DNA from: Candidatus Nitrospira inopinata
GTDB taxonomy: Bacteria; Nitrospirota; Nitrospiria; Nitrospirales; Nitrospiraceae
Length of the DNA: 32,000 bases
NCBI RefSeq assembly: GCF_001458695.1
Contig: NZ_LN885086.1
Span: 1,080,001-1,112,000, forward strand
Direction of reading: 5' to 3'
Below are positions 1,366 to 30,400 of the stretch, in pieces; the first letter of the stretch is position 1, and every line of letters starts with the position of its first letter. Below the pieces are notes generated by a model. That model had not been told where the DNA came from. It ran no database searches and worked only from the letters and a program-made list of their open reading frames with translations. Made by a program: the position numbers and the translations under genes.

Positions 1366-1953
1366 CTAACGCGCCGACGGAGGGCCTGGTCGATCCGTCA
1401 AGTCGCGGACGTTCAACAAACTGAGCAGCGTCAATCCCTCCTGTTCGACGTTGCGTTTCCCTTCCTGTTCGTTCCGATCCACAATCACCAGCGCGTGCGT
1501 GACGGTCAGGCCCGCGTCCCTCGCCGCGGCGACGGCCTTCAACAATGATCCGCCGCTGGTTAGCACGTCATCGACGATGACCGCGCGGTCTCCGGGGCGA
1601 ACGGCCCCTTCGATCAACTTCCCCAGACCATGGTCTTTGGCCTGTTTCCGCACAACGAACGTCCGCCACTCTCTCGGAGAGTGGGCGGACAACGCATAGT
1701 CCGAAATGGAGGTGGCGATAGCGATCGCCCCGATCTCGAGACCACCCAGACAATCGAATTCGACGGACTTCAGGATGTCGTAACTCATCTGAGCCACCAA
1801 TCGCCGAGCATGGGGATGGGCCATGAGAGAACGGCAATCGATGTAAAAGGGACTCGTCAGTCCCGAGGCGAGTCTGAAACCTTTGTCGGGGTCCCATTTG
1901 AACGAGTAGGTGTCGTGGAAGGCGCGGACCAATTGGTCACGAATCGTTGTCAT
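1366..1953 (-). CDS. pyrE: Orotate phosphoribosyltransferase
   Basis: FRLASGLTSPFYIDCR near the N-terminus and PRPP-binding loop VIVDDVLTSGGS. The ATG at 1953 (MTTIRDQL) has GAGG 9 nt upstream. Confidence 0.9.
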   Translation of the reverse strand: MTTIRDQLVRAFHDTYSFKWDPDKGFRLASGLTSPFYIDCRSLMAHPHARRLVAQMSYDILKSVEFDCLGGLEIGAIAIATSISDYALSAHSPREWRTFVVRKQAKDHGLGKLIEGAVRPGDRAVIVDDVLTSGGSLLKAVAAARDAGLTVTHALVIVDRNEQEGKRNVEQEGLTLLSLLNVRDLTDRPGPPSAR

Positions 1954-2026
1954 GGATTGTGCCTCATATGAGCCGACGAGCGGCGCATTGTACACCGAAC
2001 GGGGTCCGGAAGGCGGGAAAATGCTC

Positions 2027-2560
2027 TCATGCGTTCTGTTGTTGGGAAAAGACGCTGAACCGCCGAATCTGCTCGGTCAGCGTCGAGGCCACCAGGTCCA
2101 AATCGAAGGGCCAGGCGTACCGAATCGTGACGTGGGGATAAAGGGGACGAAGCTGGGCCAGGATCTCCGGGATCTCGATCTCGGAGTGGGATCCGCCGGG
2201 CGTGAACATGGTCGTCGTCACGATGACGTCGGTGGCGCCTCGGTCGATCAAGGCGCGGACCGATTCTTCGAGCGTCGGCGCGCAGAATTCATTGAAGGCG
2301 ATGCCGAACAACGCGCCGTTCAGTCGGGATTGCAGGCGGGCGGCCACCGCTTGAAGCCCGAAGAGATAGGGATCGGTCTCCGCCGTCCTCGGCCAACGCC
2401 GGATCGTCGTATCCAGCTCGATTTCTTCCCGCGACGGCGGTTGGTGGGCGGCCCGACGCTGGGCTTCCAACCGTTTCAGTCTCGTCACCAGATCTTGCGG
2501 ACAGTCTTTGGGAATCCCTCCGTGTCCGACCAACACCACTCCTTGCATGCCCGTTCTCAT
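2027..2560 (-). CDS. CbiX/SirB-type sirohydrochlorin chelatase-like protein
   Basis: VVLVGHGG near the N-terminus and TPGGSHSEIEIP later match the CbiX chelatase pattern (catalytic His positions). AGGAGG lies 5 nt before the ATG. The gene starts 15 bp after the upstream ybgA-like stop, on the same strand. Confidence 0.65.
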   Translation of the reverse strand: MRTGMQGVVLVGHGGIPKDCPQDLVTRLKRLEAQRRAAHQPPSREEIELDTTIRRWPRTAETDPYLFGLQAVAARLQSRLNGALFGIAFNEFCAPTLEESVRALIDRGATDVIVTTTMFTPGGSHSEIEIPEILAQLRPLYPHVTIRYAWPFDLDLVASTLTEQIRRFSVFSQQQNA

Positions 2561-2575
2561 GGTTCCTCCTAACGG

Positions 2576-3538
2576 CTAGACGTGGTTGCGCAGCATCAGT
2601 TCCTTGGGATGGGGGTTGAGATAAATCTGGTCGCGCACGTACTCGACGTCGAAGATCTGCACGTAGTGCTTGATCAACGTCAGGGGCACGATCAACGGCG
2701 TGAGACCGAGTCGATAGTCGCCGATGACGCTCAACAATTCCGATTTCTCCGCGGCGCGGAGTCGGTCCTTGAAGTGCCCCGCGATATGGTGCAGTACGTT
2801 CACGTGTTTGCGGACCGTGGCTTTGACGGCGAGGGCCTTCATGAAGAGCGATCCATATTTCACGGCCAGTTCTTTCGGCCCGTATCGATGGGCTTGGGCG
2901 ACCAGCCGGCCGAGCTTCTCATAGTCCTGCGGGCTGTGGGCGAGCAGGAGATATTTGTGAATGGTATGGAACCGCACCATCGCCTGCCGCGTGACGCCGG
3001 CGCGGATCAATTGCCGGAAACGTTGATAACAGAACACTTGCTCGATGAAGTTCTCCCTGATGGCGGGATCGCAGAGGCGTCCTTCCTCTTCCACGGGAAT
3101 CAGCGGAAACTTCGTCATAAACGCCTGGGCGAAGAGCCCCACGCCGTTTCGGCTGGGCATGCCGTGTTCGTTGAAGATGCGAACCCGCTCGATCCCGCAA
3201 CTGGGCGAATTCTTCTTAAAGACGTAACCGCACAGATCCAGGCTCGCCAGTTCTTCCATCCGTTTGGCGGTCGCCGCCATCAACGCCCTTGTGTGGTCGA
3301 TCCCGCTCGTGATGGTCACGAGACGAACCTGCTGGGTTTGATGCGATCGTCCGACCAGCCGCATCGCTTCACGGGGAGTGCCCAAACCCGCCTCCACCTC
3401 CGGGCAGACCGGCACCCACTCGACGTAGGGACCCAGGACTTCCGTCAAGAAAGGATCTTTTTTGTGCCCTCCGTCGTAACGAACGGGGTCCCCGAGCAGA
3501 CACCGGCTGATTCCCAGACGAAGCGGAAGGGCCGTCAT
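2576..3538 (-). CDS. ybgA: DUF523 (TudS-like Fe-S) plus DUF1722 fusion protein, YbgA family
   Basis: The N-terminus GISRCLLGDPVRYDGGHK...VPVCPEVEAGLGTPRE...SPSCG is the DUF523 Cys pattern. The C-terminal half (HKYLLLAHSPQDY...) is DUF1722-like. The ATG at 3538 overlaps the photolyase stop (ATGA). Confidence 0.85.
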   Translation of the reverse strand: MTALPLRLGISRCLLGDPVRYDGGHKKDPFLTEVLGPYVEWVPVCPEVEAGLGTPREAMRLVGRSHQTQQVRLVTITSGIDHTRALMAATAKRMEELASLDLCGYVFKKNSPSCGIERVRIFNEHGMPSRNGVGLFAQAFMTKFPLIPVEEEGRLCDPAIRENFIEQVFCYQRFRQLIRAGVTRQAMVRFHTIHKYLLLAHSPQDYEKLGRLVAQAHRYGPKELAVKYGSLFMKALAVKATVRKHVNVLHHIAGHFKDRLRAAEKSELLSVIGDYRLGLTPLIVPLTLIKHYVQIFDVEYVRDQIYLNPHPKELMLRNHV

Positions 3539-4983
3539 GTGACCTTCTCCCGTCTGCCGAGAGCAAGATACTCTTCGCGCGCCAGACGATGATCCACGAT
3601 CGGCGCGGGATAATCGATTCCGATCCGGCATCGGGCGTCCTCCTGTTCGCCGAGGGTCATCAGGTGGGGTTCGTGAATCTTGGCCGTCGGCGTCGAGGCC
3701 AGTTCCGGCACATAGCGCCGGATGTAAAGCCCTTCCGGATCGAATTTCTTGCTCTGCAACGTCGGGTTGAAAATGCGATAGCCCCTCATGGCGTCCGTTC
3801 CCGTCGAGGCGCACCATTGCCAATTGCCGTTGTTCGCGGCCACGTCGGCGTCGAGCAGGTGCGCCATGAAATACCGCTCGCCGCTCTGCCAGTCAATGCG
3901 TAGGTCTTTGATCAAAAACGAGGCCACGATCATGCGAACGCGGTTGTGCATCCAACCGGTTTGCGTCAATTGCCTCATGCCGGCATCCACGATCGGATAG
4001 CCGGTCTTTCCCTCGCACCAGGCCTGAAACAACCGGTCTCGTTCCGGCCCCGGCTGCCGTGTCGGCGGGACGGCGGCGTGACGGAACGGGCCGGAGACCA
4101 CATGGGGGAACTCGGCCAGCACTTGCTGAAAGAACTCCCGCCAGATCAGCTCATCGATCCAGATGAGTACGTCGGGACGGGAAACCTCTCCCCGACCTTT
4201 GGCCATCGTCTTGAGCGCCGCTTGAACGGCGGCGCGGGAGGAGATCGTACCGAAACGAAAGTGGGGGGAAAGTCGGGAGCTTCCGTCGATTCCAGGAACG
4301 TTACGGCCGGCGCCGTAGCGATGCAGAGGGCCGTTGCAGAACCGACGCAGCCGTTCCCAGGCCCTGCGTTCGCCCGGTGCGATCCAAGGGGAGAGAGACG
4401 CATAGCCCAACTCTTCCGCGGATGGCAGCGGGCCGGACGGCGGAACCGCCGCCCGCTTCGAGGCGGTCAGAGAAGTCGGAACGGAAAGCGCCGTCGGCTT
4501 GGCGGCGCGCCAGTGGGCCCACCAACGTGCCCGATAGGCGCTGTATCGTTGCAGCGGTTCTCCGGTCGAGCTCCTGATTTCGTGGGCCTCGAACACGACG
4601 TGATCTTTGAACGTTCGAACGAGCACGCCCATCCGCTCCAGTTGCCGCCGGACCTGCTGGTCGCGAACCTGCGCCCGCGGCTCGTAATCGCGATTCCAAT
4701 AGACGACGTCGGCCTTCCAGTCGCGCGCGGCCCGCGCCACCTCCTCCACCGGTTCGCCGCGCCGCCACTCGAACGCGAGACCTCGATCAGCCAGCGAGGC
4801 GGCCAACTCGCTCAGCGACCCGAGCATGAAGTTCACGCAGGCCGCTCCGAACTCGCGCGACCGAAGCAGCGGATCATCAAACACGAAGAAAGGGATCACT
4901 TCGTCGCATTCCGCGCAGGCCGCGCTCAGGGCCGGCTGATCGGCCAAGCGAAGGTCCCTTCGAAACCAAACGATACCACGCAT
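3535..4983 (-). CDS. phrB: Deoxyribodipyrimidine photolyase (class I CPD photolyase/cryptochrome family)
   Basis: MRGIVWFRRDLRLADQPAL N-terminus; FAD-binding C-terminal motifs WREFF, TGYPIVDAGMRQL..GWMHNRVRMIVASFL, and NNGNWQW. Confidence 0.93.
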   Translation of the reverse strand: MRGIVWFRRDLRLADQPALSAACAECDEVIPFFVFDDPLLRSREFGAACVNFMLGSLSELAASLADRGLAFEWRRGEPVEEVARAARDWKADVVYWNRDYEPRAQVRDQQVRRQLERMGVLVRTFKDHVVFEAHEIRSSTGEPLQRYSAYRARWWAHWRAAKPTALSVPTSLTASKRAAVPPSGPLPSAEELGYASLSPWIAPGERRAWERLRRFCNGPLHRYGAGRNVPGIDGSSRLSPHFRFGTISSRAAVQAALKTMAKGRGEVSRPDVLIWIDELIWREFFQQVLAEFPHVVSGPFRHAAVPPTRQPGPERDRLFQAWCEGKTGYPIVDAGMRQLTQTGWMHNRVRMIVASFLIKDLRIDWQSGERYFMAHLLDADVAANNGNWQWCASTGTDAMRGYRIFNPTLQSKKFDPEGLYIRRYVPELASTPTAKIHEPHLMTLGEQEDARCRIGIDYPAPIVDHRLAREEYLALGRREKVT

Positions 4984-5134
4984 GTGTCGCCTCAGAGTCG
5001 TGACTGGCGAGGGTTGGTCGCTCCGTCAGGAGCCACGGTCGTGTGTCGGTGCCAGCGGCTCCCGCGTCCTTGCCAACCAGGCCGTCGGCCAAGGAGATCG
5101 GACGGGAGGAGGGTGAACGTTCTCGCCGGCGCGC

Positions 5135-6049
5135 TCATTCCCTTGAGAAAATCGCTCGCAGGGCCGGCTCCAACGAGGGATAGCGAAACACGTAGCCCCC
5201 GGCGAGCGCCTTGGCCGGACGAACACGCTGCCCGGTCGTTAAAAGCGATCCCAACTCTCCCAACACGAGATGCAATGCCGCGCGGGGAACGGGAAGCCAT
5301 GACGGACGGCCGAGGACCCGTCCGAGAACGGCGCAGAATCGCCTCATGGTTTCCGGCTCCGGCGCGACGGCGTTGAGGGGGCCGGAGACGTGGGGCGTCT
5401 CCATCGCCCAGCGGATCAGCCCGATATGATCCTGTCGATGAATCCAGGAGACCCACTGACTTCCCGGCAAGATCGGTCCTCCCATAAAAAGTTTGAACGG
5501 GAGCACCATGCGCGGCAACGCCCCGCCGTCCCGTTCCAGCACCATGCCGGTTCGGAGCAGCACCACGCGCGTTCCGAATTGCCCGGCGAGCGATGCTTCC
5601 GCTTCCCATTGCAGGCAGAGGTCCGCGAGGAAGCCTTTTCCGGAAGGCGAACGTTCATCCAGGATTCGGTCATCGCCGGCTCCATAGTAGCCGATCCCCG
5701 AGGCATTGATGAGGATCGACGGGCGCGATGATTGACGGGAGATGGCCTGGACCAGGAGGCGCGTCGTGAGGATTCGGCTATCGGTGATCCGGCGCTTTCT
5801 CGCCTCCGTCCAGCGCGATTCGGCAATGGGTGCTCCAGCCAGGTTGATGACGGCATCGGCCCCGTCAAAACACCGTTCCCAGGCTCCCTCCCGCATGCCG
5901 TCCCACTCGACCACTGTTGGATTGGCCTGCGCCCCTTGCGGCGTTCCTTTCGTTCTGGCGAGCACGGTCACGCGATGGCCGCCTTGAACCAAGGAGGCGC
6001 ACAAGGCTCGGCCGATGAATCCCGTCCCTCCGGCCACAATGACGTTCAT
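5135..6049 (-). CDS. TIGR01777-family NAD-dependent epimerase/oxidoreductase (YfcH-like, DUF1731 C-terminus)
   Basis: Rossmann motif MNVIVAGGTGFIG; conserved INLAG...W, QWVSWIH, and C-terminal GYVFRYP. I chose the ATG at 6049 so the protein starts just before the GxxGxxG motif. Confidence 0.85.
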   Translation of the reverse strand: MNVIVAGGTGFIGRALCASLVQGGHRVTVLARTKGTPQGAQANPTVVEWDGMREGAWERCFDGADAVINLAGAPIAESRWTEARKRRITDSRILTTRLLVQAISRQSSRPSILINASGIGYYGAGDDRILDERSPSGKGFLADLCLQWEAEASLAGQFGTRVVLLRTGMVLERDGGALPRMVLPFKLFMGGPILPGSQWVSWIHRQDHIGLIRWAMETPHVSGPLNAVAPEPETMRRFCAVLGRVLGRPSWLPVPRAALHLVLGELGSLLTTGQRVRPAKALAGGYVFRYPSLEPALRAIFSRE

Positions 6050-6278: not shown

Positions 6279-6479
6279 CTTCTCCTCATGTGTCGAGCAA
6301 GGCTGGGATGTCGGAGCAGCTCGGCGTGCCGAGGAGCCGGGTCTCTCGAAATCGAGAGCCCGGCTACCTCAGGGGCCGCGCCGTGCGGAGTAGCGGCACG
6401 ACCCGGGCGACCGGCCCCCGCCTCGCTCACGTTGTCGGTTCAGCGTTATCCCGTTCATGATTGCCGAATCGGAGTCCTT

Positions 6480-7322
6480 CTATTCGGTTGCCGCGTTGAG
6501 ACTGCGGGCGCATCGAAAACCGGTGCCATGCGTTTGAAGCGCAAACCCGCCCCGGCCCCGGGCCGCGGCCCGAATGTCGTTTGCGGGGCTGTGCCAGGAG
6601 CCTCCCCTGATGGACCGCACCACTCCTTTTTTCTCCGGACCCTGGGGGTTCCGATCCGGCGCCTGCGCGTAGTAATCCGCGTCGTACCAATCGGCCACCC
6701 ACTCCCGCGCATTGCCCGCCATATCCTTGACGCCGTAGGGAGAATCTCCTTCGGGCAACGATCCCACGGCGTGCAGGGTCCTCTGGTCGTCCCACTCTCG
6801 GTCAAAGTTTGCCCGCCGGGGAGTCGGCGGGTCATTGCCCCATGGATACAGGCGGCCGTCGGTTCCACGGGCGGCTTTTTCCCACTCGGCTTCCGTGGGC
6901 AATCGTTTTTGAGCCCAGGTGCAATAGGCTTTGGCATCATACCAGGTTGTCTGCACGACGGGCAGTTGCTCAAGGCCTTTGATGGATTGAAGCGGACCGA
7001 TTCCGAAGGGGTCGGGAGGAGGACGGTGGCCGGTCGCCTTGACGAATCGCATGTACCGTTCGTTGGTGACTTCGACTTGATCGATCTCGAATGCGTCGAG
7101 ATAGACGGATCGCTGCGGCCATTCGTCCGGGCGGCCTTGTCCCTCCGGGCTGCCCATGAGGAATTCACCGGCCGGGATGATAATCATGGGAACCGGGTCT
7201 GGTCCGTGCGAGGAAGGGGACGGCGCGCCCGCGGTCGCCCATTGCTCCGCTCCCAACATCGTCGCCGCAATCAACGTGATTTCGATGAGCCGACTCACGG
7301 TATCGTTCAGACCGGTGCTCAC
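6480..7322 (-). CDS. Secreted FGE-sulfatase-domain (SUMF1/EgtB/PvdO family) protein lacking the FGE catalytic Cys pair
   Basis: MIIIPAGEFLMGS...VEVTNERY..F...TGH...V..TWYDAKAYCTWAQKRLPTEAEWEKAARG...YPWG...DMAGNAREWV.DWY...RGGSW...GFRCARS is the FGE-domain pattern. The GTG start overlaps the upstream stop (GTGA) and yields a hydrophobic N-terminal leader. Confidence 0.85.
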   Translation of the reverse strand: MSTGLNDTVSRLIEITLIAATMLGAEQWATAGAPSPSSHGPDPVPMIIIPAGEFLMGSPEGQGRPDEWPQRSVYLDAFEIDQVEVTNERYMRFVKATGHRPPPDPFGIGPLQSIKGLEQLPVVQTTWYDAKAYCTWAQKRLPTEAEWEKAARGTDGRLYPWGNDPPTPRRANFDREWDDQRTLHAVGSLPEGDSPYGVKDMAGNAREWVADWYDADYYAQAPDRNPQGPEKKGVVRSIRGGSWHSPANDIRAAARGRGGFALQTHGTGFRCARSLNAATE

Positions 7323-7699
7323 TTTTTGGGCTCCTTGCTTCCCTCGATGGCGTGGGCGGTGTGGATCCGAACGAGATTCACAAGGTGCTCAACTTCTCGA
7401 TTGTCCCCCTGTTGCGCGGCTTCGAGCGCCTGCGTGATGAGGGTTCTGGCTTCGTGCAGGTGTTCTTCGATCGCGGCCTGGAGCGCGGGCGACGCCATGG
7501 TGCCGCCCAACGCCGCCCGGTGATAGACTTCCCAGGCGTCGTCGACCTCGTGAGCGGCCTGATGCACGGTTCGGAGGACTTCCTGATACGGATGATCCAT
7601 CCCTTCTCCCTCAAGAGGGCCGGCCGTGAGATAAAAAGGCCCCAGACACGAGACGAGCACAATGCCCGGAATCAGCAGTTTCTTTATCAGCGTCTTCAT
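7319..7699 (-). CDS. Small His-rich predicted helical lipoprotein (possibly small metal-binding-protein-like)
   Basis: The ATG at 7699 gives MKTLIKKLLIPGIVLVSC, a signal peptide with lipobox LVS|C. The mature part has about 10 His in HxxxH/HxH arrangements (HQAAH, HLH, HTAH) within predicted amphipathic helices. GGAG lies 9 nt upstream. Confidence 0.6.
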   Translation of the reverse strand: MKTLIKKLLIPGIVLVSCLGPFYLTAGPLEGEGMDHPYQEVLRTVHQAAHEVDDAWEVYHRAALGGTMASPALQAAIEEHLHEARTLITQALEAAQQGDNREVEHLVNLVRIHTAHAIEGSKEPKK

Positions 7700-7791
7700 A
7701 AGCGATGCTCCGTCTGAGCGGTCGATGATGTGGTTCGACGCGCTCGTTCGTTGTGCAAGGCCGTGCGGAACGGATCCCCTGTATGCGCCTA

Positions 7792-8745
7792 TCATTTGTT
7801 TCGTTTCATCGCTTTCTGAATAAGATCGCGGGTCGCGAGATATTCTTGGTTGTCCGGGTCGATGGCCAAGGCCTTTTCAATGGCGGTCAACGCGTTCGCG
7901 TACTTTTCGGCTCCCATGAACACGAGCGTCTGGATAAAGGCGTCACGCGCCTCCTGTCTCATGCTGTCGGAGACCACTCGGGCCGATTTGGCGCATCGGA
8001 ATCCCAACCCCACCCCATAAGAATTATTCTCCGGCTGGTTCCAGAACCGGTGGCTGGTATGGAGCGAGGTTCCCGGCGCCAGCCATGATCCTCCGCGCAG
8101 AACCCGGACCGGTCCTTGATTGGCGAAGTTGTAGCCCTTCTCCGGCCCCTGGGGATTCAGGGCCACACTCTCCTTGTAATAGTTGGGGGTATACCAGTCC
8201 TGCACCCATTCGAAGACGTTCCCTGCCATATTGTAGATACCGAAGCCGCTCACACCCTCCGGATAGGAATCGACCGGGGTCGTGCGCCCGACGTTTTGAC
8301 CGTAGTTGGCCTTGCTCGGATCGAGCGTGTGTCCCCAGGGGTAATGGTTGTCTCCGGAAGGGCCCTTGGCCGCTCGTTCCCATTCCGCTTCTGTGGGCAG
8401 TCTCTTCCCCTCCCACTTGCAGAACGCGGCGGCGTCGGTCCAACTGACCCCCACGACGGGCTGCTCGGGCTTGTTCAGCCGCGGATCGTCCCAATAGGCG
8501 GGAGCGGGATGGCCCGTCGCCCTCATGAATTCTTTATAGCGCGCGTTGGACGTTTCGTACTTGTCGATGTAATAGGCGTCGAGCACGACTTGATGTTTGG
8601 GCTCGTCGGAATGTTCGTTGCTCCCCATCGTGAACTCGCCGTGGGGAATCAGCACCATGTCGGTTTCGGCGGCGGAAACGTCCGTCACCGCGGAGAGAGA
8701 AATGGCTCCTCCCACCATGAGCATCGCCAGCGTTTGACTCCGCAT
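7792..8745 (-). CDS. Secreted FGE-sulfatase-domain protein (paralogue of 6480..7322) with a C-terminal TPR-like helical tail; no catalytic Cys pair
   Basis: Signal peptide MRSQTLAMLMVGGAISLSAVTDVSA|AE, then MVLIPHGEFTMGS...GVSWTDAAAFCKWEGKRLPTEAEWERAAKG...YPWG...NMAGNVFEWVQDWY...RGGSW...GFRCAKS. AAGGAGG lies before the ATG at 8745. Confidence 0.88.
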   Translation of the reverse strand: MRSQTLAMLMVGGAISLSAVTDVSAAETDMVLIPHGEFTMGSNEHSDEPKHQVVLDAYYIDKYETSNARYKEFMRATGHPAPAYWDDPRLNKPEQPVVGVSWTDAAAFCKWEGKRLPTEAEWERAAKGPSGDNHYPWGHTLDPSKANYGQNVGRTTPVDSYPEGVSGFGIYNMAGNVFEWVQDWYTPNYYKESVALNPQGPEKGYNFANQGPVRVLRGGSWLAPGTSLHTSHRFWNQPENNSYGVGLGFRCAKSARVVSDSMRQEARDAFIQTLVFMGAEKYANALTAIEKALAIDPDNQEYLATRDLIQKAMKRNK

Positions 8746-8773
8746 GATAGTCCTCCTTGGTCGTTCATGTGTC

Positions 8774-9064
8774 CTAGGCGGCCGCCCACAGTTCCGAAGA
8801 AAAGGTCGAGGGCCCGTCTGGCTCGGCGGATTGTCGGCTCTGTCCGAGTCGGCGATTCCGCAGGATCACGGGATCGACGATGTCACCGCACTGGATGCAG
8901 CGCAGGGCGGCAAACTCCAGCTCGCGGTCGCTGTTCAAGAGATCCATGCAGACGTGGCTGACCAAGAGTCCCCCGCATCGGGCGCAGGTCTGGTGGGAAG
9001 CATTGGCGGGATGGCCTTCTGTGATTCCCCGTTCACTCATATGCTCTGAGAGTATTGAAGCCAT
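8774..9064 (-). CDS. Small cytoplasmic Zn-ribbon protein (96 aa), hypothetical
   Basis: The ATG at 9064 is preceded by AAGGAG. There are two CxxC pairs (CARCGG ... CIQCGD) about 25 residues apart. It has no signal peptide. It is the first gene of the operon that diverges from the CarH-like regulator. Confidence 0.6.
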   Translation of the reverse strand: MASILSEHMSERGITEGHPANASHQTCARCGGLLVSHVCMDLLNSDRELEFAALRCIQCGDIVDPVILRNRRLGQSRQSAEPDGPSTFSSELWAAA

Positions 9065-9106
9065 AGGCGACTCCTTTTGTTTAATGTTCGTCAATGATAT
9101 GTTCAA

Positions 9107-9135
9107 TGTATATCTAATTTGTCTATAGTTGTCAA
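9107..9135 (-). promoter_or_regulatory. Putative sigma70-type promoter for the Zn-ribbon/FGE-like operon
   Basis: On the minus strand: TTGACA (plus 9130-9135), a 17-bp spacer, then TATACA (plus 9107-9112). The -35 element lies inside the 11-bp palindrome AGTTGTCAACT (9127-9137). Confidence 0.4.
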
Positions 9136-9154
9136 CTGTTATTTTTGAGAACGA

Positions 9155-9183
9155 TTGACAAAGACTGAACATCACGATAAGCT
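9155..9183 (+). promoter_or_regulatory. Putative sigma70-type promoter for the CarH/LitR-like gene, predicting a leaderless or near-leaderless mRNA
   Basis: TTGACA (9155-9160), a 17-bp spacer, then TAAGCT (9178-9183). Only 6 nt separate the -10 element from the ATG at 9190, and there is no Shine-Dalgarno sequence. Confidence 0.4.
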
Positions 9184-9189
9184 GAAACT

Positions 9190-10124: not shown

Positions 10125-10703
10125 TCATTCTCCCACAGGCGGACCGGTCGCGATGGGGCCTCGCACGCACCAGACCGGGAATGTGTAAAGCCTGGTCATG
10201 CTCAGGACGTTTCCCAGAAAGGCGTCCAGGTATCGAGCATACGACGGCTGATTGGCCTCGGGCACCACGGTCCAGTACGAGGTCTGGACGATGTTGAGAA
10301 AGGGATGGCCGGGAGGAATGTTGGGGCCGGGAGCATCGATCGCCGGTCCGACAAGGCTCCGCATTTCGGCGGGAGAGGGTAAACGCCATCCTTTTTGTCC
10401 GCCGATCACTCGACGAACGCAAGCGGCTCGGGCTTCGTTCCACGTGACGCGCGCGCTGTCCGGCGCAAGCTCCCAGATAAGGCCCGTTTCTTTGTCCAGC
10501 ACGGCCTCGTTCTGAAAAGCGGGCAGAACCTCAAAGCGATGCTCCGCCGGGTGCGCCGCCTGCCAGTTCCGGACGATTTCCGCCATCAATTCCTCTTTTC
10601 CCACGGGCGGGCTGGCGGGCGAACTCAACAGCAGATAAGCAAGGAGAGACAGACTTCCAGCCGCGACAACGAAAGCGCCGGGGATAATCCATTTGAGATT
10701 CAT
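10125..10703 (-). CDS. Membrane-anchored DUF1566 (Lcl C-terminal domain) protein
   Basis: The ATG at 10703 gives MNLKWIIPGAFVVAAGSLSLLAYLLL, a TM anchor. The DUF1566 signature is TGLIWE...VTWNEARAAC.....GWRLPSPAEMRSL. Confidence 0.75.
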   Translation of the reverse strand: MNLKWIIPGAFVVAAGSLSLLAYLLLSSPASPPVGKEELMAEIVRNWQAAHPAEHRFEVLPAFQNEAVLDKETGLIWELAPDSARVTWNEARAACVRRVIGGQKGWRLPSPAEMRSLVGPAIDAPGPNIPPGHPFLNIVQTSYWTVVPEANQPSYARYLDAFLGNVLSMTRLYTFPVWCVRGPIATGPPVGE

Positions 10704-11129
10704 TGCCGTGCAGCGGCGGGACGAGATGAAGACCAACGCCCAAGGCGTCGTGCCTGAGACAAGCGTTAACCGTTGCGGTTGTCTCCGGCACTCCGCCTGC
10801 TCCGAGTCCAGGATATTCTTCTCTCAGCTCCTGGGTCAAGGAGAGGCCCGGCGGAGCTCGTGGCCGGCCTGTGTGCTGACAGGGAGTCGCAGCATCGGAC
10901 CGCCGTGAGGAAATCTCATTCCAATAAGATCGGTCGCACGAGACCAGCTCGCTCGAAAACGAGGGCGCATGATGCTGACGGGACGGGCGGGGGTAAATAA
11001 CGCCCGCTTGTCATGACTCCCGAAGGATATCTCGACAGGGGCGCCTCTCTCTTGATACCCTGTGCTCCTATGGCTCGGAACTCACGAAAGCCGTCCGGCT
11101 TCCGGTCGGCCGATCGACAGTCGACAAGG

Positions 11130-23949: not shown

Positions 23950-24456
23950 ATGGTGCGACCGAAGGTAGCAAAGACCTTGTCTCCTCAGGATGGCGGCTTC
24001 ACGCTGGTCGAAATTGCCATTGTGCTGGCCATTATCGGCATCGCGGCGGCCCTGGCGGGGCCGAATCTCATGACCATGTATGCGCGCTATGAGCTCTATC
24101 AGACGACGACGTCGCTCTACCAGACGCTGATGTTGGCGCGATCGGCGGCTGTAACCCGCAACACGGTCATCACCGCGACCCCGTCGAATCTTCCCAGCGG
24201 TCAGGGGCAGGTGGTGTTCAACGCGGTGATGACGGCGGAGCCGTTTCCGCTGACGGTGGGATTCGTCCCGCCCTTGCCGGCTCAGCCGATCGGCTTTACC
24301 TCCCGCGGCTTGAGCACGACTCCTCTGGCCACGCAGACCGTTCAGCTCCAGAGCCTGCGAGACCCCAATTTGATCTATACGATTTCGCTGGCTCCTTCCG
24401 GCAAGGTGACCTGGTGCAATCAGGCGGTCAATCCCTGCCTGGTCCAGTCCGGTTGA
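23950..24456 (+). CDS. fimU: FimU/FimT (GspH-family) type IV minor pilin, set 2
   Basis: Canonical prepilin site GG|FTLVEIAIVLAIIGIAA; LYQTLMLARSAAVTR (GspH/FimT motif); C-terminal Cys pair WCNQAVNPC. An alternative TTG start at 23977 would give a 7-aa leader, MSPQDGG. Confidence 0.85.
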   Translation: MVRPKVAKTLSPQDGGFTLVEIAIVLAIIGIAAALAGPNLMTMYARYELYQTTTSLYQTLMLARSAAVTRNTVITATPSNLPSGQGQVVFNAVMTAEPFPLTVGFVPPLPAQPIGFTSRGLSTTPLATQTVQLQSLRDPNLIYTISLAPSGKVTWCNQAVNPCLVQSG

Positions 24457-24483
24457 TATGGAACGAATCATGAGGCTCGGCGC

Positions 24484-25011
24484 ATGAGCGTGCGGCGTCA
24501 AGAAGCGGGATTCACCTTGGTCGAAGTCTTGGTTTCGGCCACCGTGCTCAGCCTGGGCGTGCTGGGCATGGCGGCCATGCAGGGAATCTCGTTCACCAAA
24601 AACGTGGACGCCAACGACCTGTCCATTGTGACCAATCTGGCTTCCGATATGGTGGAGCGGATTCAAAACAGCCGGCGCAACGCTTGGGCTTACAACGCCG
24701 TCAGCACGGCGGGAGGGGGCAATTGCCTGACCGGGGCGATCCCCGCCGCGCAACCGGCTCCGCCGTTTCCTGCTGCGCCGCTTTCGGTGGCGGCGGTCAG
24801 GAAGGTGCAAGGCGATTGCGTGCAATGGAGACAACTGGTTCAAGATTCCAATCTCCTCAACGTACAGGGGACCGTGACGGTGACGCCGGTTGCGCCGATC
24901 ACGGCCGATTCCGCCTCGGTGCTCGTCACCGTTCGAGTCCAATGGAACGAACGGGCGCAGGGACAGAGGCTGCGCCAGGTGGCGTTTCAAACTCAGATTG
25001 TGCCGGAGTGA
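24484..25011 (+). CDS. pilV: Type IV pilus minor pilin PilV
   Basis: MSVRRQEAG|FTLVEVLVSATVLSLGVLGMAAMQ is the typical PilV N-terminus. Confidence 0.87.
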   Translation: MSVRRQEAGFTLVEVLVSATVLSLGVLGMAAMQGISFTKNVDANDLSIVTNLASDMVERIQNSRRNAWAYNAVSTAGGGNCLTGAIPAAQPAPPFPAAPLSVAAVRKVQGDCVQWRQLVQDSNLLNVQGTVTVTPVAPITADSASVLVTVRVQWNERAQGQRLRQVAFQTQIVPE

Positions 25012-25019
25012 ACGACGCA

Positions 25020-26321
25020 ATGCGATGCACCGGATTTCGCGAGGGAGCCGTCGATAGCCGATGGGAACAGACCGGTCAGCGTGGCTTCACCTTGACAGAG
25101 GTGATGGTCGCCGCGGCCATGACCACGGCCATTCTGGCCGCGGGGTTCGCCGCCGTCACCATGACGCAGAAAACCACGCGCATGACCAGCCAGGTGGGGC
25201 AAACCCAGGCGACGGTACGGAGCGCCATTGACATGATCGCGGCGGATTTAAAGCTGGCGGGGTTCGGCATGCAGGGTCTGGTGGGAGTCGGTGGCGGACC
25301 TGGAACGGTGGGGGGCTGTCGCATCAACAATACTCCGGTGGCGCTGGTTCCAACGGACAACAATCCGGCCGGGCCGGATACGGGCCCTGATCGGATTTCG
25401 ATCGTCGTCCCCATGACCAATTCCGTGGCGGCGGCCGGACCCTTATGGCAGGTTTCGGTTCCGCCGGCCGGTATGATCGGCGGGCCGAACAGTCCCATTA
25501 CCAATGTTCCCTTGCCCGCCGGGGCGATTGCGGCCATGGAACAGGCGGTGGGAGGGGCGGCGCTGCTTCCGGGCATGAGCGTGTCGATTGCCGGCACCGC
25601 GGGATCGGTGATCCAGAACGCCGGAGGAGGCGGGCTGGTGCTCAATCCGCCTATTCCAGCGCCGGTTCAGTTTGGAACCGGCACGCAAGTCTATGTGTTG
25701 CAGTGCATCACCTATCAGGTCATCCCACCGCCCGACAATCTCAATCTCTGTCAAGGCAACGCGCCCTGTCTGGTTCGGGGGGCCGTGCCGATCGCGTTAG
25801 TTCCCGCAGGCACGGCTCCCAACTGTAACCAAGCCGGCTCGACCTGCGTGCCCATCATGGACGGAGTCGAAGATTTGCAACTGGCCTATGCCTGTGACGG
25901 ATGCAGCCCTCTGGTCAACGGAGGCAACCCCGACGGCCAGATCGACGACCTCAACGGCAGCAATTCCTTCGACCAAGGGGACTTCATCACGAACCGCGAT
26001 TGGTTCGGGACCGGCGCGCCGTTCGGCACGTACATGGCGCCGGATAAGATCCGGCTGGTTCGCGTGACGCTTGTGGCGCGGCAGGCGAGGCCGGACCAGG
26101 GATTTGGGGAAGCGAATCAGGTCGTGACGCACACGGGCTTGAGCAGCGGCGCGATGGGCGGCGGGATCAACGGCGGCATCCTCACGGTGAGCGACCACAA
26201 CCACGCCGACGGATTATTTGTCGCGGGCGACAACGGGACTCCGGCCCAACAACAGGCCTATCTCCAATTGCGACGGCGCATCCTCACCCGGACGGTCGAA
26301 TTAAGAAATCAGAGGTACTAG
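25020..26321 (+). CDS. pilW: Type IV pilus minor pilin PilW
   Basis: ...QRG|FTLTEVMVAAAMTTAILAAGFAAV followed by the PilW-like ...IDMIAADLKLAGFG. The ATG at 25020 is one candidate start. The GTG at 25008 overlaps the pilV stop and is in frame. Confidence 0.84.
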   Translation: MRCTGFREGAVDSRWEQTGQRGFTLTEVMVAAAMTTAILAAGFAAVTMTQKTTRMTSQVGQTQATVRSAIDMIAADLKLAGFGMQGLVGVGGGPGTVGGCRINNTPVALVPTDNNPAGPDTGPDRISIVVPMTNSVAAAGPLWQVSVPPAGMIGGPNSPITNVPLPAGAIAAMEQAVGGAALLPGMSVSIAGTAGSVIQNAGGGGLVLNPPIPAPVQFGTGTQVYVLQCITYQVIPPPDNLNLCQGNAPCLVRGAVPIALVPAGTAPNCNQAGSTCVPIMDGVEDLQLAYACDGCSPLVNGGNPDGQIDDLNGSNSFDQGDFITNRDWFGTGAPFGTYMAPDKIRLVRVTLVARQARPDQGFGEANQVVTHTGLSSGAMGGGINGGILTVSDHNHADGLFVAGDNGTPAQQQAYLQLRRRILTRTVELRNQRY

Positions 26322-26951
26322 ATGGCAAGGGATGAAGAAAGTCGCCTCGGGGGCCGGCGCCTCCTTCCGGAGGATGAACGGGGCATTGCCCTGTTGGCGA
26401 TGATGATCATCCTGCTGCTGGCGGGCGTGCTCGGCGTGGCGGCCTTGACCATGACCGGCATGGAAAATTCCATGGCCGGGGCCGTGCGCATGGTCGAAGA
26501 AGGAACCCATGCGGCCGAATCGTGCATCGGGGCATCGGTCAACGTGATCCAGCAGAGCATCGACGCGGGAACGGTGCCCGCGACGCTTATCGCGCCGAAT
26601 GGCCCGGTGCCGGCCGCCAACGCGGTGTTTCTCGGCGAGGAAATCAACGGTGTGCGAGCCAATGATCCCGATGTGGCCGTCGGCGCCGGCGGCAATCCGA
26701 ACATCGTCATGAACGTCAATAATTACGTGGTCAACGGCGACATCGATTTTCAGTACCGCAAGCAAAAGAGCGGCGGAGTGGCGAGTTTGGCCTCTGGCTA
26801 CGACGGCACGGGGACGGGCGCGGCGTCGGTAAACATGTTCTATCGCATCGACTGTACGGCTCAGAACGCGGCGACGGGAGCCACAAGCCGCGTGATCGCG
26901 GTCTACGACTGTCTGGCGGCTGGCGATGGCTGCACCAGGCGGACGTATTAG
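26322..26951 (+). CDS. pilX: Type IV pilus minor pilin PilX (PilX_N domain)
   Basis: ...DERG|IALLAMMIILLLAGVLGVAALTM has no Glu +5. The ATG directly abuts the pilW stop. Confidence 0.8.
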   Translation: MARDEESRLGGRRLLPEDERGIALLAMMIILLLAGVLGVAALTMTGMENSMAGAVRMVEEGTHAAESCIGASVNVIQQSIDAGTVPATLIAPNGPVPAANAVFLGEEINGVRANDPDVAVGAGGNPNIVMNVNNYVVNGDIDFQYRKQKSGGVASLASGYDGTGTGAASVNMFYRIDCTAQNAATGATSRVIAVYDCLAAGDGCTRRTY

Positions 26952-27010
26952 GGGTAATAAGCTACCTAGGCCGGCCGGGTGGCGTTGTGGGCCGGTGAGG
27001 GAGACCAGAC

Positions 27011-27391
27011 ATGAAAGAACAGAATGTGGGGCAGAAAGGCCGCTTCTTGGCGGAGATGAGACTGGTTGCGGGGCTGCGCATCACGATTTGTTTCGCAACG
27101 ATCAGCCTGAGCGCGTGGTTCTGCTTGCTCGGATCTCCTATGGCGCACGCACAGTCCAGGCCGACGGTGATTGGTGGATTGGCGGAGCAAGGCATGGTGA
27201 CCGGCGTTCGTGAACGCACGGTTGTCATCGACGGACGAGACTACGAATTCGATCAAAAGGTCGAGGTGTTCGACGCCAAGGGCAACCGAGTCGATCTGTC
27301 GGCCATCGTGCGGAACGCGGAGGTGCGGTTTCGGTTGAAGCAAGACGACGTCAACAAAATCGACAGGATCGTGGTCTATTTGCCCCAGTAG
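27011..27391 (+). CDS. Small secreted hypothetical protein between pilX and pilY1
   Basis: GAGGGAG lies 7 nt before the ATG at 27011. The signal peptide ends in ..LLGSPMAHA|QS. The mature part of about 78 aa looks beta-rich (VVIDGRDYEFDQKVEVFDAKGNRVDLSAIVRNAEVRFRL). Confidence 0.6.
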   Translation: MKEQNVGQKGRFLAEMRLVAGLRITICFATISLSAWFCLLGSPMAHAQSRPTVIGGLAEQGMVTGVRERTVVIDGRDYEFDQKVEVFDAKGNRVDLSAIVRNAEVRFRLKQDDVNKIDRIVVYLPQ

Positions 27392-27439
27392 TCTGGGGGC
27401 GACCCTGAAAAGCCTGCAAAACAAAACGGGAGGATGTCC

Positions 27440-30400
27440 ATGAACAGCCGGAACATCGCGTGTCGTGGAGCCGCGGCGCTGACCTTGCTCATCGGTCTCT
27501 TGGGGACTCAGCCGCTCGAAGCCCAGACGATGGATCAATACTACTCCGTTCCTCCCTTCGTTGCCGAGCAAGTTGCTCCGAACATCATCCTCTTGCTGGA
27601 CAACTCCGGCAGTATGGCGGACCGGGCCTGCGATCCCACTTGGTGCGGCGTGTTGGCCGGCGGCGGCACCACGCCGGTCAATCAAAACTTCGTCGCGACC
27701 ACGACGTATGGCGGATTTTTCGACTCCCTCGCCTGCTACGTCTATGACGCAACCAACAGCCGGTTTGAGTATGCAGCCGCCAAGGCATCGGTGAGCGCCA
27801 CCTGCCCGACCAACACGCAATGGGACGGGAATTTGCTCAACTGGGCGACCTTTCTGCGCATCGATGCGCTCAAGAAAGCCATGTCGGGCGGCGATTGCGT
27901 CGTCACTCGCGCGGCGGACGGCACCTGCCCGCCGAGCGGCAGTCCGGCGAAGATTACCATCAAGGCGCAGCAGCGGTTCGATAGCACCACCCGCGGGCAC
28001 GCCGTCATGACGATCCCGAGCGGATCGGGGAACGGCTACCAAAATCGAATTCCCACCGCGGCGACTCCGGGTAACCCCAACCCGATCTATATTCAATATC
28101 GCGGTGGAACGAGCGGCATGGGCGGGAGCTTCTGCATCGACAATGACAACACCGCTCCGGGCAGTACGGCGACAACATGTACGGATGGGGACGGCTTTGC
28201 GGAAAGCCAGTATTGGCTCCGCATCGTTCGGGATACGGAGCCGACCGGCATCATTCAACAGGTCGGGGCCCAGGCTCGATTCGGGCTTTTCGAGTTCAAA
28301 CCTGGTGCGAGCAACGGGTCGGCGGTGGACGGATCCCGCATGTTGGTCGGGGTCGGAGCTCGTCAGACCATCGCGTTCAGTACCTCGACCGTCAGGACCT
28401 TCAGCACGAACATGGCGGCGATGTTGGACGCCGTGGAGGAAACCTATCCATCGACCTGGACTCCGTTGGCCGAATCGCTGTATGACGCGGCTCGGTATGT
28501 GGCCCAGATCAATTCCGCCTACAATACGAGCGCGTACAACTATCCGATCGCCTATTCGCCGGGCGTGGCGTTTCAAGCCACGGGGATCGGGTCGATCGGT
28601 TCCAGTGAGTTGAGTGTGCTGTCGTCGGGCGAGGTCTGCCCCTCCGGGTATATTGCCAATGCCTGCGGCCGGGACCCATTTTTCTTCGGCAGCAACCATT
28701 CACCGGCCTGGGCGACCAACTCCGTCCAGGTGTCGTGCTGCAAGACCTTTGTTCTCCTTGTGACCGATGGTGAGCCGACCCAAGACGTGGGGATCCCGGC
28801 GTCGCTTCAAAATTATGCGGTGACGAACGCGGCCTCATACGTGGGAACCCTCTGCACGGGAAACAGAGGCGTCCCCTACGCCAATCCCCCCGGCGCGACG
28901 TGCAATAACGATCCGGGCACCCCGGCCAATGTGCTGCTGTTGCAGCATCGGACTGATTACGCGAGCAACGGCTCCCACTATTTGGACGATGTCGCCTACT
29001 GGGCCCACACGACCGACCTTCGTCCTTGCAACGGCACGGCGGACGGCACGATCGCCGTGCTGAACGTGAGCGGTCGGTGTTTGCCCGGCCTCCAGAACAT
29101 CAACCTCTACACGTTCTACGCCTTCGGCAACATCAGCGGCCGCGAGCTCCTGATGAAGGCGGCGATGCTCGGTGGGTTTGAGGACGCCAATGGAAACAAT
29201 CTGCCTGACTTGGCGAATGAGTGGGATAAGGTGATCAATGCGACAGGCGCGCCGGGCAGCGACGGGATCCCCGACAACTATTTTGAATCATCCAACGTGG
29301 ATGACCTCCATGAGCGACTCATGGCTACGATCACGTCGATTTTGCGACGGAGCGCCTCCGGTACTTCGATCTCCGTCTTGGCCACGTCTGCCTCCGGGGA
29401 AGGGTCCATTTATCAAGCCTACTTCTTTACGAGCGACATCGGCCAGAACGGAAGCACGGTCAAATGGACCGGCTACACCCATGCCCTGTTCATCGACTCG
29501 TTCGGCAATTTCCGCGAGGATACCAATCAAGACGGGGTATTGGATTACAGTGTCGATCGGATCGTGACGACCAGGTATGACAATGATCCGTCCAGTCCCA
29601 CGTATCGAAGCGTGCTCGTGGACAAGTATGAAGATCTCAATGGAGACGGCTTGGCCGACAGTACGACGCCCGTCGTGCTGGGCGGGAGTTTGAAATCCAT
29701 TATCCCGATCTGGGAGGCGGGCAAAGAACTGGCGCTCACCTCTGCTGCCTCGCGAAAGATTCTGACCTGGGTCGATGTCAACAATAACGGCCTTGTCGAG
29801 CCGAGTGAACAAATGGACTTCAGCACGGCTAACTGTGGGACGTTGCGCGACTATCTGCGCTACGCCGGCGATGCCTGCACGGGCGGCAGCAACGCGATGA
29901 ACCTCATCCGCTTTATCCGCGGAGAAGAAATCAGCGGGCTCCGCACGCGCATGATCGAGGTGCCGGTCGGAAGCGGCTCCTATCACGTCTGGAAGCTCGG
30001 CGATCCGATCCACTCGACGCCGACGATCGTCGGGCCGCCGAAAGAACGATACGACTTAATCTATGGGGATGCGACCTACAACACGTTTTATCAACAGTAT
30101 AGAAATCGTCGCCAAGTGGCCTACGTCGGAGCCAACGACGGCATGCTCCATGCCTTCAACGCCGGTTTCTATCACCGAGGAGACAACCCCGTCACGACGA
30201 ACGTGGTCGAGCGGGGCTGGTTTACCAAAACGCCAACCGATAATTCAGGGGGGCCCAATTTGGGGGCCGAACTCTGGTCCTTCATCCCCTATCAGCTTCT
30301 GCCGCAGCTTCAGTGGCTCGCGAGAGCTGACTATAGCCACGTATATTACGTCGATCTGAAACCCAAGGTGTCGGATGTGCGGATCTTTACGCCCGATGCC

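Follow-up and report, generated by a model that had tools for sequence, protein, structure and literature searches.

A divergent CarH-type regulator and a conserved gene string for photolyase, FGE-fold and His-rich proteins in Nitrospirales: a candidate light-derepressed operon

Class I CarH/LitR photoreceptor-repressors, represented by those of Thermus thermophilus, Myxococcus xanthus (Pcrt) and B. megaterium, join a MerR domain to a B12 module with a Wx9EH motif and an axial His, and their regulons are marked by a divergent target operon with direct TnnACA repeats of ~11 bp over the -35/-10 region. Published CarH operators consist of tandem 11-bp repeats (nnnnTnnACAn) that overlap -35 or -10, and they tolerate weaker pseudo-repeats; in M. 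xanthus the layout is DR-dr-DR-DR-dr over ~55 bp, and repression of the CarH type requires adenosylcobalamin (AdoCbl) (PMC9304148). Photolyase regulons that respond to light or singlet oxygen, namely those of class II LitR in Pseudomonas and Burkholderia and of sigmaE-ChrR in Rhodobacter, bring together a photolyase, a short-chain dehydrogenase/reductase/epimerase-like protein and a YbgA-like protein (partly from PMC9758184). The gene string described here lies in a window of 32,000 nt from Candidatus Nitrospira inopinata (NZ_LN885086.1, 1,080,001-1,112,000; positions below are window positions), and it resembles class I CarH systems in its regulator, divergent arrangement and repeats, and photolyase regulons in its gene content. 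Unlike the known class I CarH regulons, it belongs to a nitrifier, has no carotenoid genes, begins with a Zn-ribbon gene, and encodes exported proteins of the formylglycine-generating enzyme (FGE) fold together with an exported His-rich protein. Unlike the class II LitR and sigmaE-ChrR regulons, its sensor is a B12-CarH, and a periplasmic FGE-like/His-rich block is unreported there.

A sequence-only reading of the window had singled out four minus-strand genes, here called ZnR, FGE1, H3hb and FGE2, as a candidate operon controlled by B12 and light. Comparison among related genomes makes it probable that one long, light-derepressed operon of the Nitrospirales, which perhaps also responds to B12, has these genes as its promoter-proximal block. 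For this comparison, one genome per GTDB species was scanned with a ZnR alignment and the best 80 of 393 relatives were examined as loci, onto which the window proteins were mapped; denominators below are the loci with enough sequence. The 80 loci all belong to Nitrospira, Nitrospiraceae or Nitrospirales, N. moscoviensis included, except for one 3-kb contig binned elsewhere. The five central proteins of the window are CUQ66106-CUQ66110, annotated only as hypothetical, ‘formylglycine-generating enzyme family protein’ or ‘MerR family transcriptional regulator’; ZnR is 100% identical to a hypothetical protein of Ca. N. inopinata.

The regulator and its candidate operator

The protein encoded divergently from ZnR has MerR_1, B12-binding_2 and B12-binding Pfam matches (6e-13, 2.7e-09 and 1.8e-11), that is, an N-terminal helix-turn-helix and a C-terminal B12 module, and it aligns over its full length with the T. 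thermophilus CarH structures 3WHP/5C8D (E 1.4e-29). In this alignment, the Wx9EH segment at the upper AdoCbl face, ‘vgelWhqgridiavEH’, pairs with ‘vgeaWhrgeigvaeEH’ of Thermus CarH, and ‘gelHeig’, with the axial His of ExHxxG, pairs with ‘gerHeig’. The AdoCbl-photoreceptor motifs that had been recognised in the regulator are thus borne out. Since domains and motifs are kept while the score for the NCBIfam CarH equivalog falls below its cut-off, the protein reads as a divergent class I CarH/LitR. A gene for a DCC1-like thiol-disulfide oxidoreductase directly follows carH on the same strand in 26 of the 80 loci (for example L006:1153-1554, L008:4362-4757 and L067:7484-7912), though not in the window.

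As had been read from the sequence, 125 bp (9065-9189) separate ZnR from the divergent regulator gene. Both promoters in this region (Table 1) were assigned from the sequence together with its conservation across species. TnnACA repeats occur on the minus strand at 9125-9120 (TAGACA), 9109-9100 (ACATTGAACA) and 9087-9078 (ACATTAAACA), followed by an AAGGAG ribosome-binding site (RBS) at 9076-9071, 6 nt ahead of the ZnR start codon. When the intergenic regions of ~70 species were aligned, the operon-strand consensus was CTTGACACATTGGACA, ~6 nt, TTTATACATTAGACATAC, ~6 nt, ACAAACATTGAACA, a GGAGG RBS and ATG. The 10-mer ACATTRRACA is nearly confined to the carH-ZnR intergenic regions of related loci; two exact copies are present in the window (9100-9109 and 9078-9087), and related loci have 2-5 copies, 21-22 bp apart, over -35, -10 and ~+20. 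The L067 locus has 6 copies, as against 0.10 expected by shuffling. The candidate operator would read DR-dr-DR-dr-DR over ~55 bp that take in -35, -10 and the early transcript, and in this it resembles M. xanthus Pcrt (PMC9304148). As far as sequence can tell, the intergenic TnnACA repeats match the published grammar of CarH operators.

On the side of the regulator gene, the spacer of the putative carH promoter contains one TnnACA repeat (TGAACA, 9166-9171), and an inverted element, TTGACAAACATTGGACA, beside carH is conserved in other species. The carH mRNA is predicted to be nearly leaderless, with the -10 element TAAGCT ending 6 nt before the ATG (9190), and this geometry recurs in other species. 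Over-long gene calls of ZnR homologues (P0174, P0180, P0198, P0211 and P0225) render the operator DNA as ‘TLDxxxYTLDI’ or ‘TLDTLDxxxYTLDI’; these peptides are an annotation artefact and an independent sign of how widespread the promoter is, as they mark it in many more genomes.

Extent and conservation of the gene string

The open reading frame (ORF) map agrees with the coordinates first given for the four genes (Table 1), with the gaps of 28 bp (8746-8773) and 92 bp (7700-7791), and with the 4-bp GTGA overlap at 7319-7322; the H3hb ORF is translationally coupled to FGE2. The genes and spacing of the proposed four-gene operon are real, but the string does not stop at 6480; it runs on to ~1366 on the minus strand with no gap >201 bp. 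The co-directional string is ~7.7 kb long, and the four genes are its promoter-proximal third. The sequence-only reading had also held that they stand in the place of the photolyase expected in such a regulon, which was wrong: photolyase, TIGR01777 and YbgA-like genes are in the same string, 1.5 kb downstream. Therefore, the string appears to be an extended version of a classical photodamage regulon.

The sole AT-rich stretch of the string is the carH-ZnR intergenic region, and its inner intergenic gaps are GC-rich, with no AT-rich promoter, operator motif or predicted terminator. A second operator or promoter before TIGR01777 or phr was sought in the window and in 39 related loci, where neither a motif copy nor an AT-rich region was found. 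Therefore, one long CarH-controlled transcript is favoured, although not proven.

Table 1. Features of the carH locus and the gene string in the window
Feature	Position	Strand	Basis
Operon promoter and candidate CarH operator	9078..9135	-	-35 TTGACA 9135-9130, -10 TATACA 9112-9107
Putative carH promoter	9155..9183	+	-35 TTGACA 9155-9160, 17-nt spacer, -10 TAAGCT 9178-9183
carH/litR-type gene for AdoCbl photoreceptor-repressor, 306 aa	9190..10110	+	MerR/B12 domains, Thermus CarH alignment
ZnR, 96-aa cytoplasmic Zn-ribbon, first gene after the operator	8774..9064	-	Invariant Cys motif, AlphaFold2 (AF2) model
FGE1, 317 aa, predicted exported, FGE-sulfatase fold with C-terminal TPR-like tail	7792..8745	-	PF03781 1.4e-55
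H3hb, 126 aa, predicted exported His-rich three-helix bundle	7319..7699	-	AF2 model, invariant His
FGE2, 280 aa, predicted exported or membrane-anchored, FGE-sulfatase fold	6480..7322	-	PF03781 1.5e-56
Small hydrophobic ORF, 55 aa	6111..6278	-	GAGGAG RBS, positional conservation; no Pfam match
TIGR01777 (YfcH/ThyD-like) epimerase-family gene	5135..6049	-	TIGR01777 1.5e-99 (above cut-off); Epimerase and DUF1731
Class I cyclobutane pyrimidine dimer (CPD) photolyase (phr)	3535..4983	-	DNA_photolyase and FAD_binding_7; NCBIfam models up to 1e-128
DUF523 (2-thiouracil desulfurase-like)/DUF1722 YbgA-like gene, overlaps phr by 4 bp	2576..3538	-	PF04463 9e-40, PF08349 5.5e-42
CbiX-family chelatase gene, 15 bp downstream of the YbgA-like gene	2027..2560	-	PF01903 3.6e-10
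Phosphoribosyltransferase-domain gene, probable last gene of the string	1366..1995	-	PF00156 1.5e-09
DUF1566/Lcl_C gene, convergent with carH, neighbour outside the operator's control	10125..10736	-	PF07603 6.7e-18

A divergent CarH-like gene is present within 2.4 kb in 70 of 72 loci. An FGE-like gene directly follows ZnR in 65/71, H3hb is downstream in 49/53, and H3hb is immediately followed by an FGE-like gene in every locus that could be scored (64/64). Further along the string, TIGR01777 is found downstream in 49 of 53 loci and a photolyase gene on the same strand within 9.2 kb in 22 of 24. The arrangement is kept at ZnR identities down to ~42%, and therefore appears to be under selection. 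The sequence-only reading had tied its proposal to a conserved linkage with a CarH-like gene; across the GTDB species genomes this linkage holds and, together with the TnnACA repeats conserved on the promoter, it supports control by the CarH-like regulator. Conservation in ~70 Nitrospirales species puts the arrangement, by this comparison, far beyond chance.

Toward its distal end, the string keeps CbiX at the same position in L001, L007, L009 and 17 GTDB loci, and the phosphoribosyltransferase gene has the same order in L001 and L009, where the strand switches beyond it. Many lineages insert an NmrA/DUF2867 protein or an extra FGE1-like gene. A small hydrophobic ORF (43-55 aa), mostly unannotated, with a strong RBS and an RRQ-type motif past the hydrophobic stretch, lies between FGE2 and TIGR01777 in many lineages. 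A second ZnR paralogue (ZnR-B) is immediately upstream of TIGR01777 in most Nitrospirales (for example L005:13742-13981, L007:12339-12620 and L061 ~13107), and it is lost in the N. inopinata clade.

A copy of amoC (PF04896) is on the same strand inside the predicted CarH string in 9 of 80 species loci and directly after ZnR in four of these; there is none in the N. inopinata window. The amoC-bearing loci are L007:10479-11282, L029, L054, L062, L072, L074, L045, L066, L073 and L079:9630-10433. Such a string-embedded gene could supply a spare AmoC inducible by light, and would then bear on the photoinhibition of ammonia monooxygenase.

Other features of the window stand apart from the string. 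The DUF1566 gene is convergent with carH, as first described, and adjoins carH only in the N. inopinata clade and some other lineages. A fold kinship between DUF1566 and the FGE domain had been suggested as well; of this there is only a local profile match, a weak one (hhalign probability 17.6%), at the W..A..C...RLP..E motif. None of ZnR, FGE1, H3hb, FGE2 and the DUF1566 protein had a PADLOC match, and a reading as a defence system was dropped. An unrelated type IV pilus set, with a PilB-like T2SSE ATPase, a PilW-like protein and a 1478-aa PilY1-domain protein, occupies 22315-31870 on the plus strand.

Products of the promoter-proximal genes

The description of the first product as a Zn-ribbon protein is confirmed by four invariant Cys residues (C27, C30, C56 and C59), which form two CxxC knuckles within the invariant motif CxRCGGLxV...RCxQCGxxxDxVILxNR. 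In the AF2 model (mean predicted local distance difference test score, pLDDT, 65), two beta-hairpin zinc knuckles are followed by a basic helix, and the ends are disordered. No significant match to ZnR was found in Pfam, NCBIfam or PDB, nor a named family, and Foldseek against PDB gave only generic zinc ribbons (best, the MqsA N-domain at E 0.18), which is uninformative. A profile search recovered 2377 cluster representatives, all of them small stand-alone proteins. Its probable role is that of a small regulator or adaptor linked to control by CarH. A possible lead is the Myxococcus antirepressor CarS, another small protein that a CarH/CarA circuit places under the control of light. The SH3-like fold of CarS contains no zinc, whereas ZnR combines a four-Cys zinc ribbon and a basic helix; no similarity between the two was found.

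The two proteins proposed to be FGE-like are indeed so. Both match PF03781 over its full length, PDB chains of FGE match at E ~5e-39, and the scaffold motifs RLPTEAEWE and RGGSW are shared with the SUMF1/FGE-sulfatase fold (EgtB/OvoA, PvdO, NirV and PorK/GldK). Unlike true FGE, they lack both Cu-binding catalytic Cys residues: the Cu(I)-binding C336/C341 region of human FGE, ‘GGSYMCHRSYCY’, aligns to ‘GGSWLAPGTSLH’ in FGE1, where both are replaced, and the active-site loop of FGE2, ‘GGSWHSPANDIR’, has no Cys. Nor is there a sulfatase neighbour, as the window ORFs that were scanned contain no sulfatase domain. Unlike EgtB, OvoA and SenA, they have no DinB domain and match only the C-terminal half of the models, at ~90-112 bits against cut-offs of 360-420; the cut-offs of the PvdO (54-72 bits, cut-off 500) and GldK (99-126 bits, cut-off 350) families are likewise unmet. 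In FGE1, the C-terminal tail has sub-threshold tetratricopeptide repeat (TPR) matches. The orthologues of FGE1, FGE2 and H3hb keep N-termini that look like signal peptides on inspection, in agreement with the proposal that all three are exported.

H3hb belongs to a family of >1000 relatives with 61-93% identity, all of ~122 aa. Its AF2 model (mean pLDDT 82.6) has helices at 37-64, 71-96 and 100-121, and six His residues (H46, H50, H60, H80, H82 and H113) are invariant. Of the earlier label, a His-rich lipoprotein, the first half holds and the second does not, as the lipobox (LVSC) Cys is present in just 4 of 26 aligned family members, and in most members LIALLG is found, together with a cleavage site of the AxA type ahead of GP. 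Because of this distribution, the family is predicted to consist of signal-peptide proteins, not lipoproteins. Foldseek against PDB gave only generic helical bundles (best E 0.14), which is again uninformative. H3hb together with FGE2 might have been a split EgtB (DinB His-triad plus FGE-like domain), but PDB and Pfam profile searches at E = 10 gave no DinB/EgtB signal, and the idea is kept as an analogy only. H3hb also resembles SmbP of Nitrosomonas europaea (PDB 3U8V, PF16785), another small, exported, His-rich and all-helical protein of a nitrifier; it differs in having three helices, in its His pattern and in the lack of detectable homology.

A second CarH operon bears on what these proteins may do. 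Two CarH paralogues are present in L067, L039, L051, L053 and L068, and in part the evidence extends to L037, L069 and L077. The L067 paralogue closest to the CarH of the window has 74% identity and the same operator architecture. It is this gene that, at L067:3894-7419, is divergent from an operon for three proteins: a tetrahaem cytochrome of the NapC/NirT type (PF03264, 3e-43), a fusion of cytochrome c with an FGE-sulfatase domain (cytochrome c::FGE) and SmbP (PF16785 5.6e-23; PDB 3U8V 1.7e-12). These genes recur in L039, L051, L053 and L068 and, incompletely, in L037, L069 and L077. FGE2 is ~49% identical to the FGE part of such fusions. Nitrospira CarH thus appears to control, repeatedly, FGE-fold proteins paired with small His-rich helical proteins. 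Because an FGE-fold paralogue is wired to a quinol-dehydrogenase-type cytochrome in a CarH operon, a metal- or redox-linked periplasmic function may be favoured over a purely structural one, with modest confidence. For the earlier guess at metal handling this operon is circumstantial support.

The alternative is that the FGE-like proteins, possibly with the DUF1566 protein, are non-catalytic, lectin-like envelope proteins, so that light would remodel the cell surface or aggregation, for example for shading, and H3hb would be a structural partner. This is conceivable, although we regard it as somewhat unlikely. The loss of the catalytic Cys residues from FGE1 and FGE2 speaks for it, as do the best NCBIfam matches, which are to GldK/PorK (far below cut-offs), PDB relatives that include PorK and a Treponema variable protein, the protein-interaction type of tail in FGE1, and the repurposed FGE folds of the literature (PorK/GldK, type VI secretion system immunity proteins and the variable proteins of diversity-generating retroelements, DGR). 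A structural role, however, can hardly explain the FGE2 paralogue that is fused to cytochrome c in an operon with NapC/NirT, and the six invariant His of H3hb also argue against it.

Proposed control, alternatives and significance

A mechanism for the long light-derepressed operon can be potentially described as follows. In the dark, AdoCbl-bound CarH would bind the ~55-bp TnnACA operator, covering -35, -10 and ~20 nt at the start of the transcript (9078-9135), as well as one inverted repeat in the spacer of its own promoter. Light would cleave the Co-C bond, upon which the oligomer would dissociate and transcription would begin. A single transcript would then carry ZnR, FGE1, H3hb, FGE2, the small membrane peptide, TIGR01777, photolyase and the YbgA-like gene, up to the cbiX or the phosphoribosyltransferase gene. 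The products would form a cytoplasmic branch, made up of photolyase and its partners, and a periplasmic branch. In the most speculative step of this scheme, FGE1, FGE2 and H3hb would act as one module, metal-dependent or redox-linked, in protecting or repairing envelope components under photo-oxidative stress; H3hb may be a partner or metal donor of FGE2, and ZnR may, speculatively, feed back on regulation. While the comparison argues strongly for CarH control of the string, we infer the light response, co-transcription, export and biochemical functions of the products.

Several points weigh against this scheme. CarH control of the string is a candidate drawn from genome comparison, and the regulator scores 134.9 bits (3e-39) against a cut-off of 400 for the NCBIfam CarH equivalog NF052513. 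In the operator, strong repeats 21-22 bp apart alternate with weak ones, unlike the 3-4 contiguous 11-bp repeats of the best-studied operators. A generic consensus promoter scanner called neither the ZnR-operon nor the carH promoter, because the -10 hexamers TATACA and TAAGCT fail its rules, and an internal promoter at 6279-6479 (a gap of 201 bp) or at 4984-5134 (151 bp) would be compatible with the present data. In L026, L056 and L079, carH, ZnR, ZnR-B, TIGR01777, phr and ybgA are found without the FGE/H3hb block, and this block therefore has the character of a cassette. Away from carH, general stress islands contain more distant ZnR paralogues. As for the products, neither a metal nor a substrate is tied to FGE1, FGE2 or H3hb, and FGE folds are often non-catalytic, e.g. 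in PorK and in DGR target proteins. H3hb has no significant Pfam, PDB or profile match, and its identification as an SmbP was rejected, with no PF16785 match at E = 10 and an hhalign probability of 8.6% against a bona fide Nitrospira SmbP.

The distant ZnR paralogues include L004:5255-8261 and L003:8001-8345; the islands of both contain Phage_holin_3_6 and AI-2E transporter genes together with hemerythrin or superoxide dismutase genes, and one of the two paralogues lies 134 bp after a LigD gene.

It could also be that the regulator is mainly a sensor of AdoCbl sufficiency, in which case apo-CarH would remain unbound when AdoCbl is lacking, the operon would be on, and cobalamin status would be read. 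N. inopinata was enriched from the biofilm of a subsurface hot-water pipe, and CbiX is encoded in the same gene string, both of which fit such a sensor. The AdoCbl requirement of CarH-type repression (PMC9304148) and the B12 auxotrophy of some Nitrospira (PMC8115632) point the same way. Against it stand the presence in the string of photolyase, an enzyme that requires light, in 22 of 24 species, the intact light-sensing Wx9EH motif, and the gene content, in which no B12 transport or synthesis genes besides CbiX were seen; an Rfam search of the window found no cobalamin riboswitch, its sole match being a tRNA. Overall, this explanation seems improbable. That the four genes form a unit of their own, next to carH without regulatory meaning, is very unlikely: such a view can appeal to a regulation that rests on comparison and to a generic scan that calls no promoter, whereas the linkage persists in 70 of 72 species, even where ZnR identity is as low as ~42%, and operator-type repeats that overlap the sole AT-rich promoter-like region are conserved base for base.

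That light inhibits nitrifiers is a decades-old observation, and we know of no description of light sensing or light response in nitrite oxidisers and comammox bacteria. Searches of the available literature library found no paper that joins Nitrospira with CarH/LitR, CarH/LitR with FGE-like proteins or, in a relevant way, Nitrospira with formylglycine, and those found on light adaptation in Nitrospira mention photolyases only. More broadly, Nitrospira, comammox members included, might answer photoinhibition with a dedicated B12 light regulon, in which an FGE-fold metalloenzyme or repair system runs on quinol/cytochrome electrons and ZnR is an antirepressor-like regulator. H3hb with FGE2, FGE1 and, elsewhere, NapC/NirT, cytochrome c::FGE, SmbP and the amoC copies would then belong together, with the quinol/cytochrome electrons serving to protect or restore copper or haem enzymes damaged by light. 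Taken as a whole, this broader proposal is unlikely to hold in full and is put forward only tentatively.

The locus appears to be a class I CarH regulon whose cargo is unreported, in a guild that is both sensitive to light and of ecological importance. It offers a testable circuit of sensor, operator and gene set across the Nitrospirales, two of which, N. moscoviensis and N. inopinata, can be cultured. It would also place three families without a function in a context of light or photo-oxidative stress: ZnR with its ~2400 cluster representatives, H3hb with >1000 relatives, and the Cys-less exported FGE-fold proteins. Where comammox lineages carry amoC in the same string, as some do, the circuit would be tied directly to ammonia monooxygenase.

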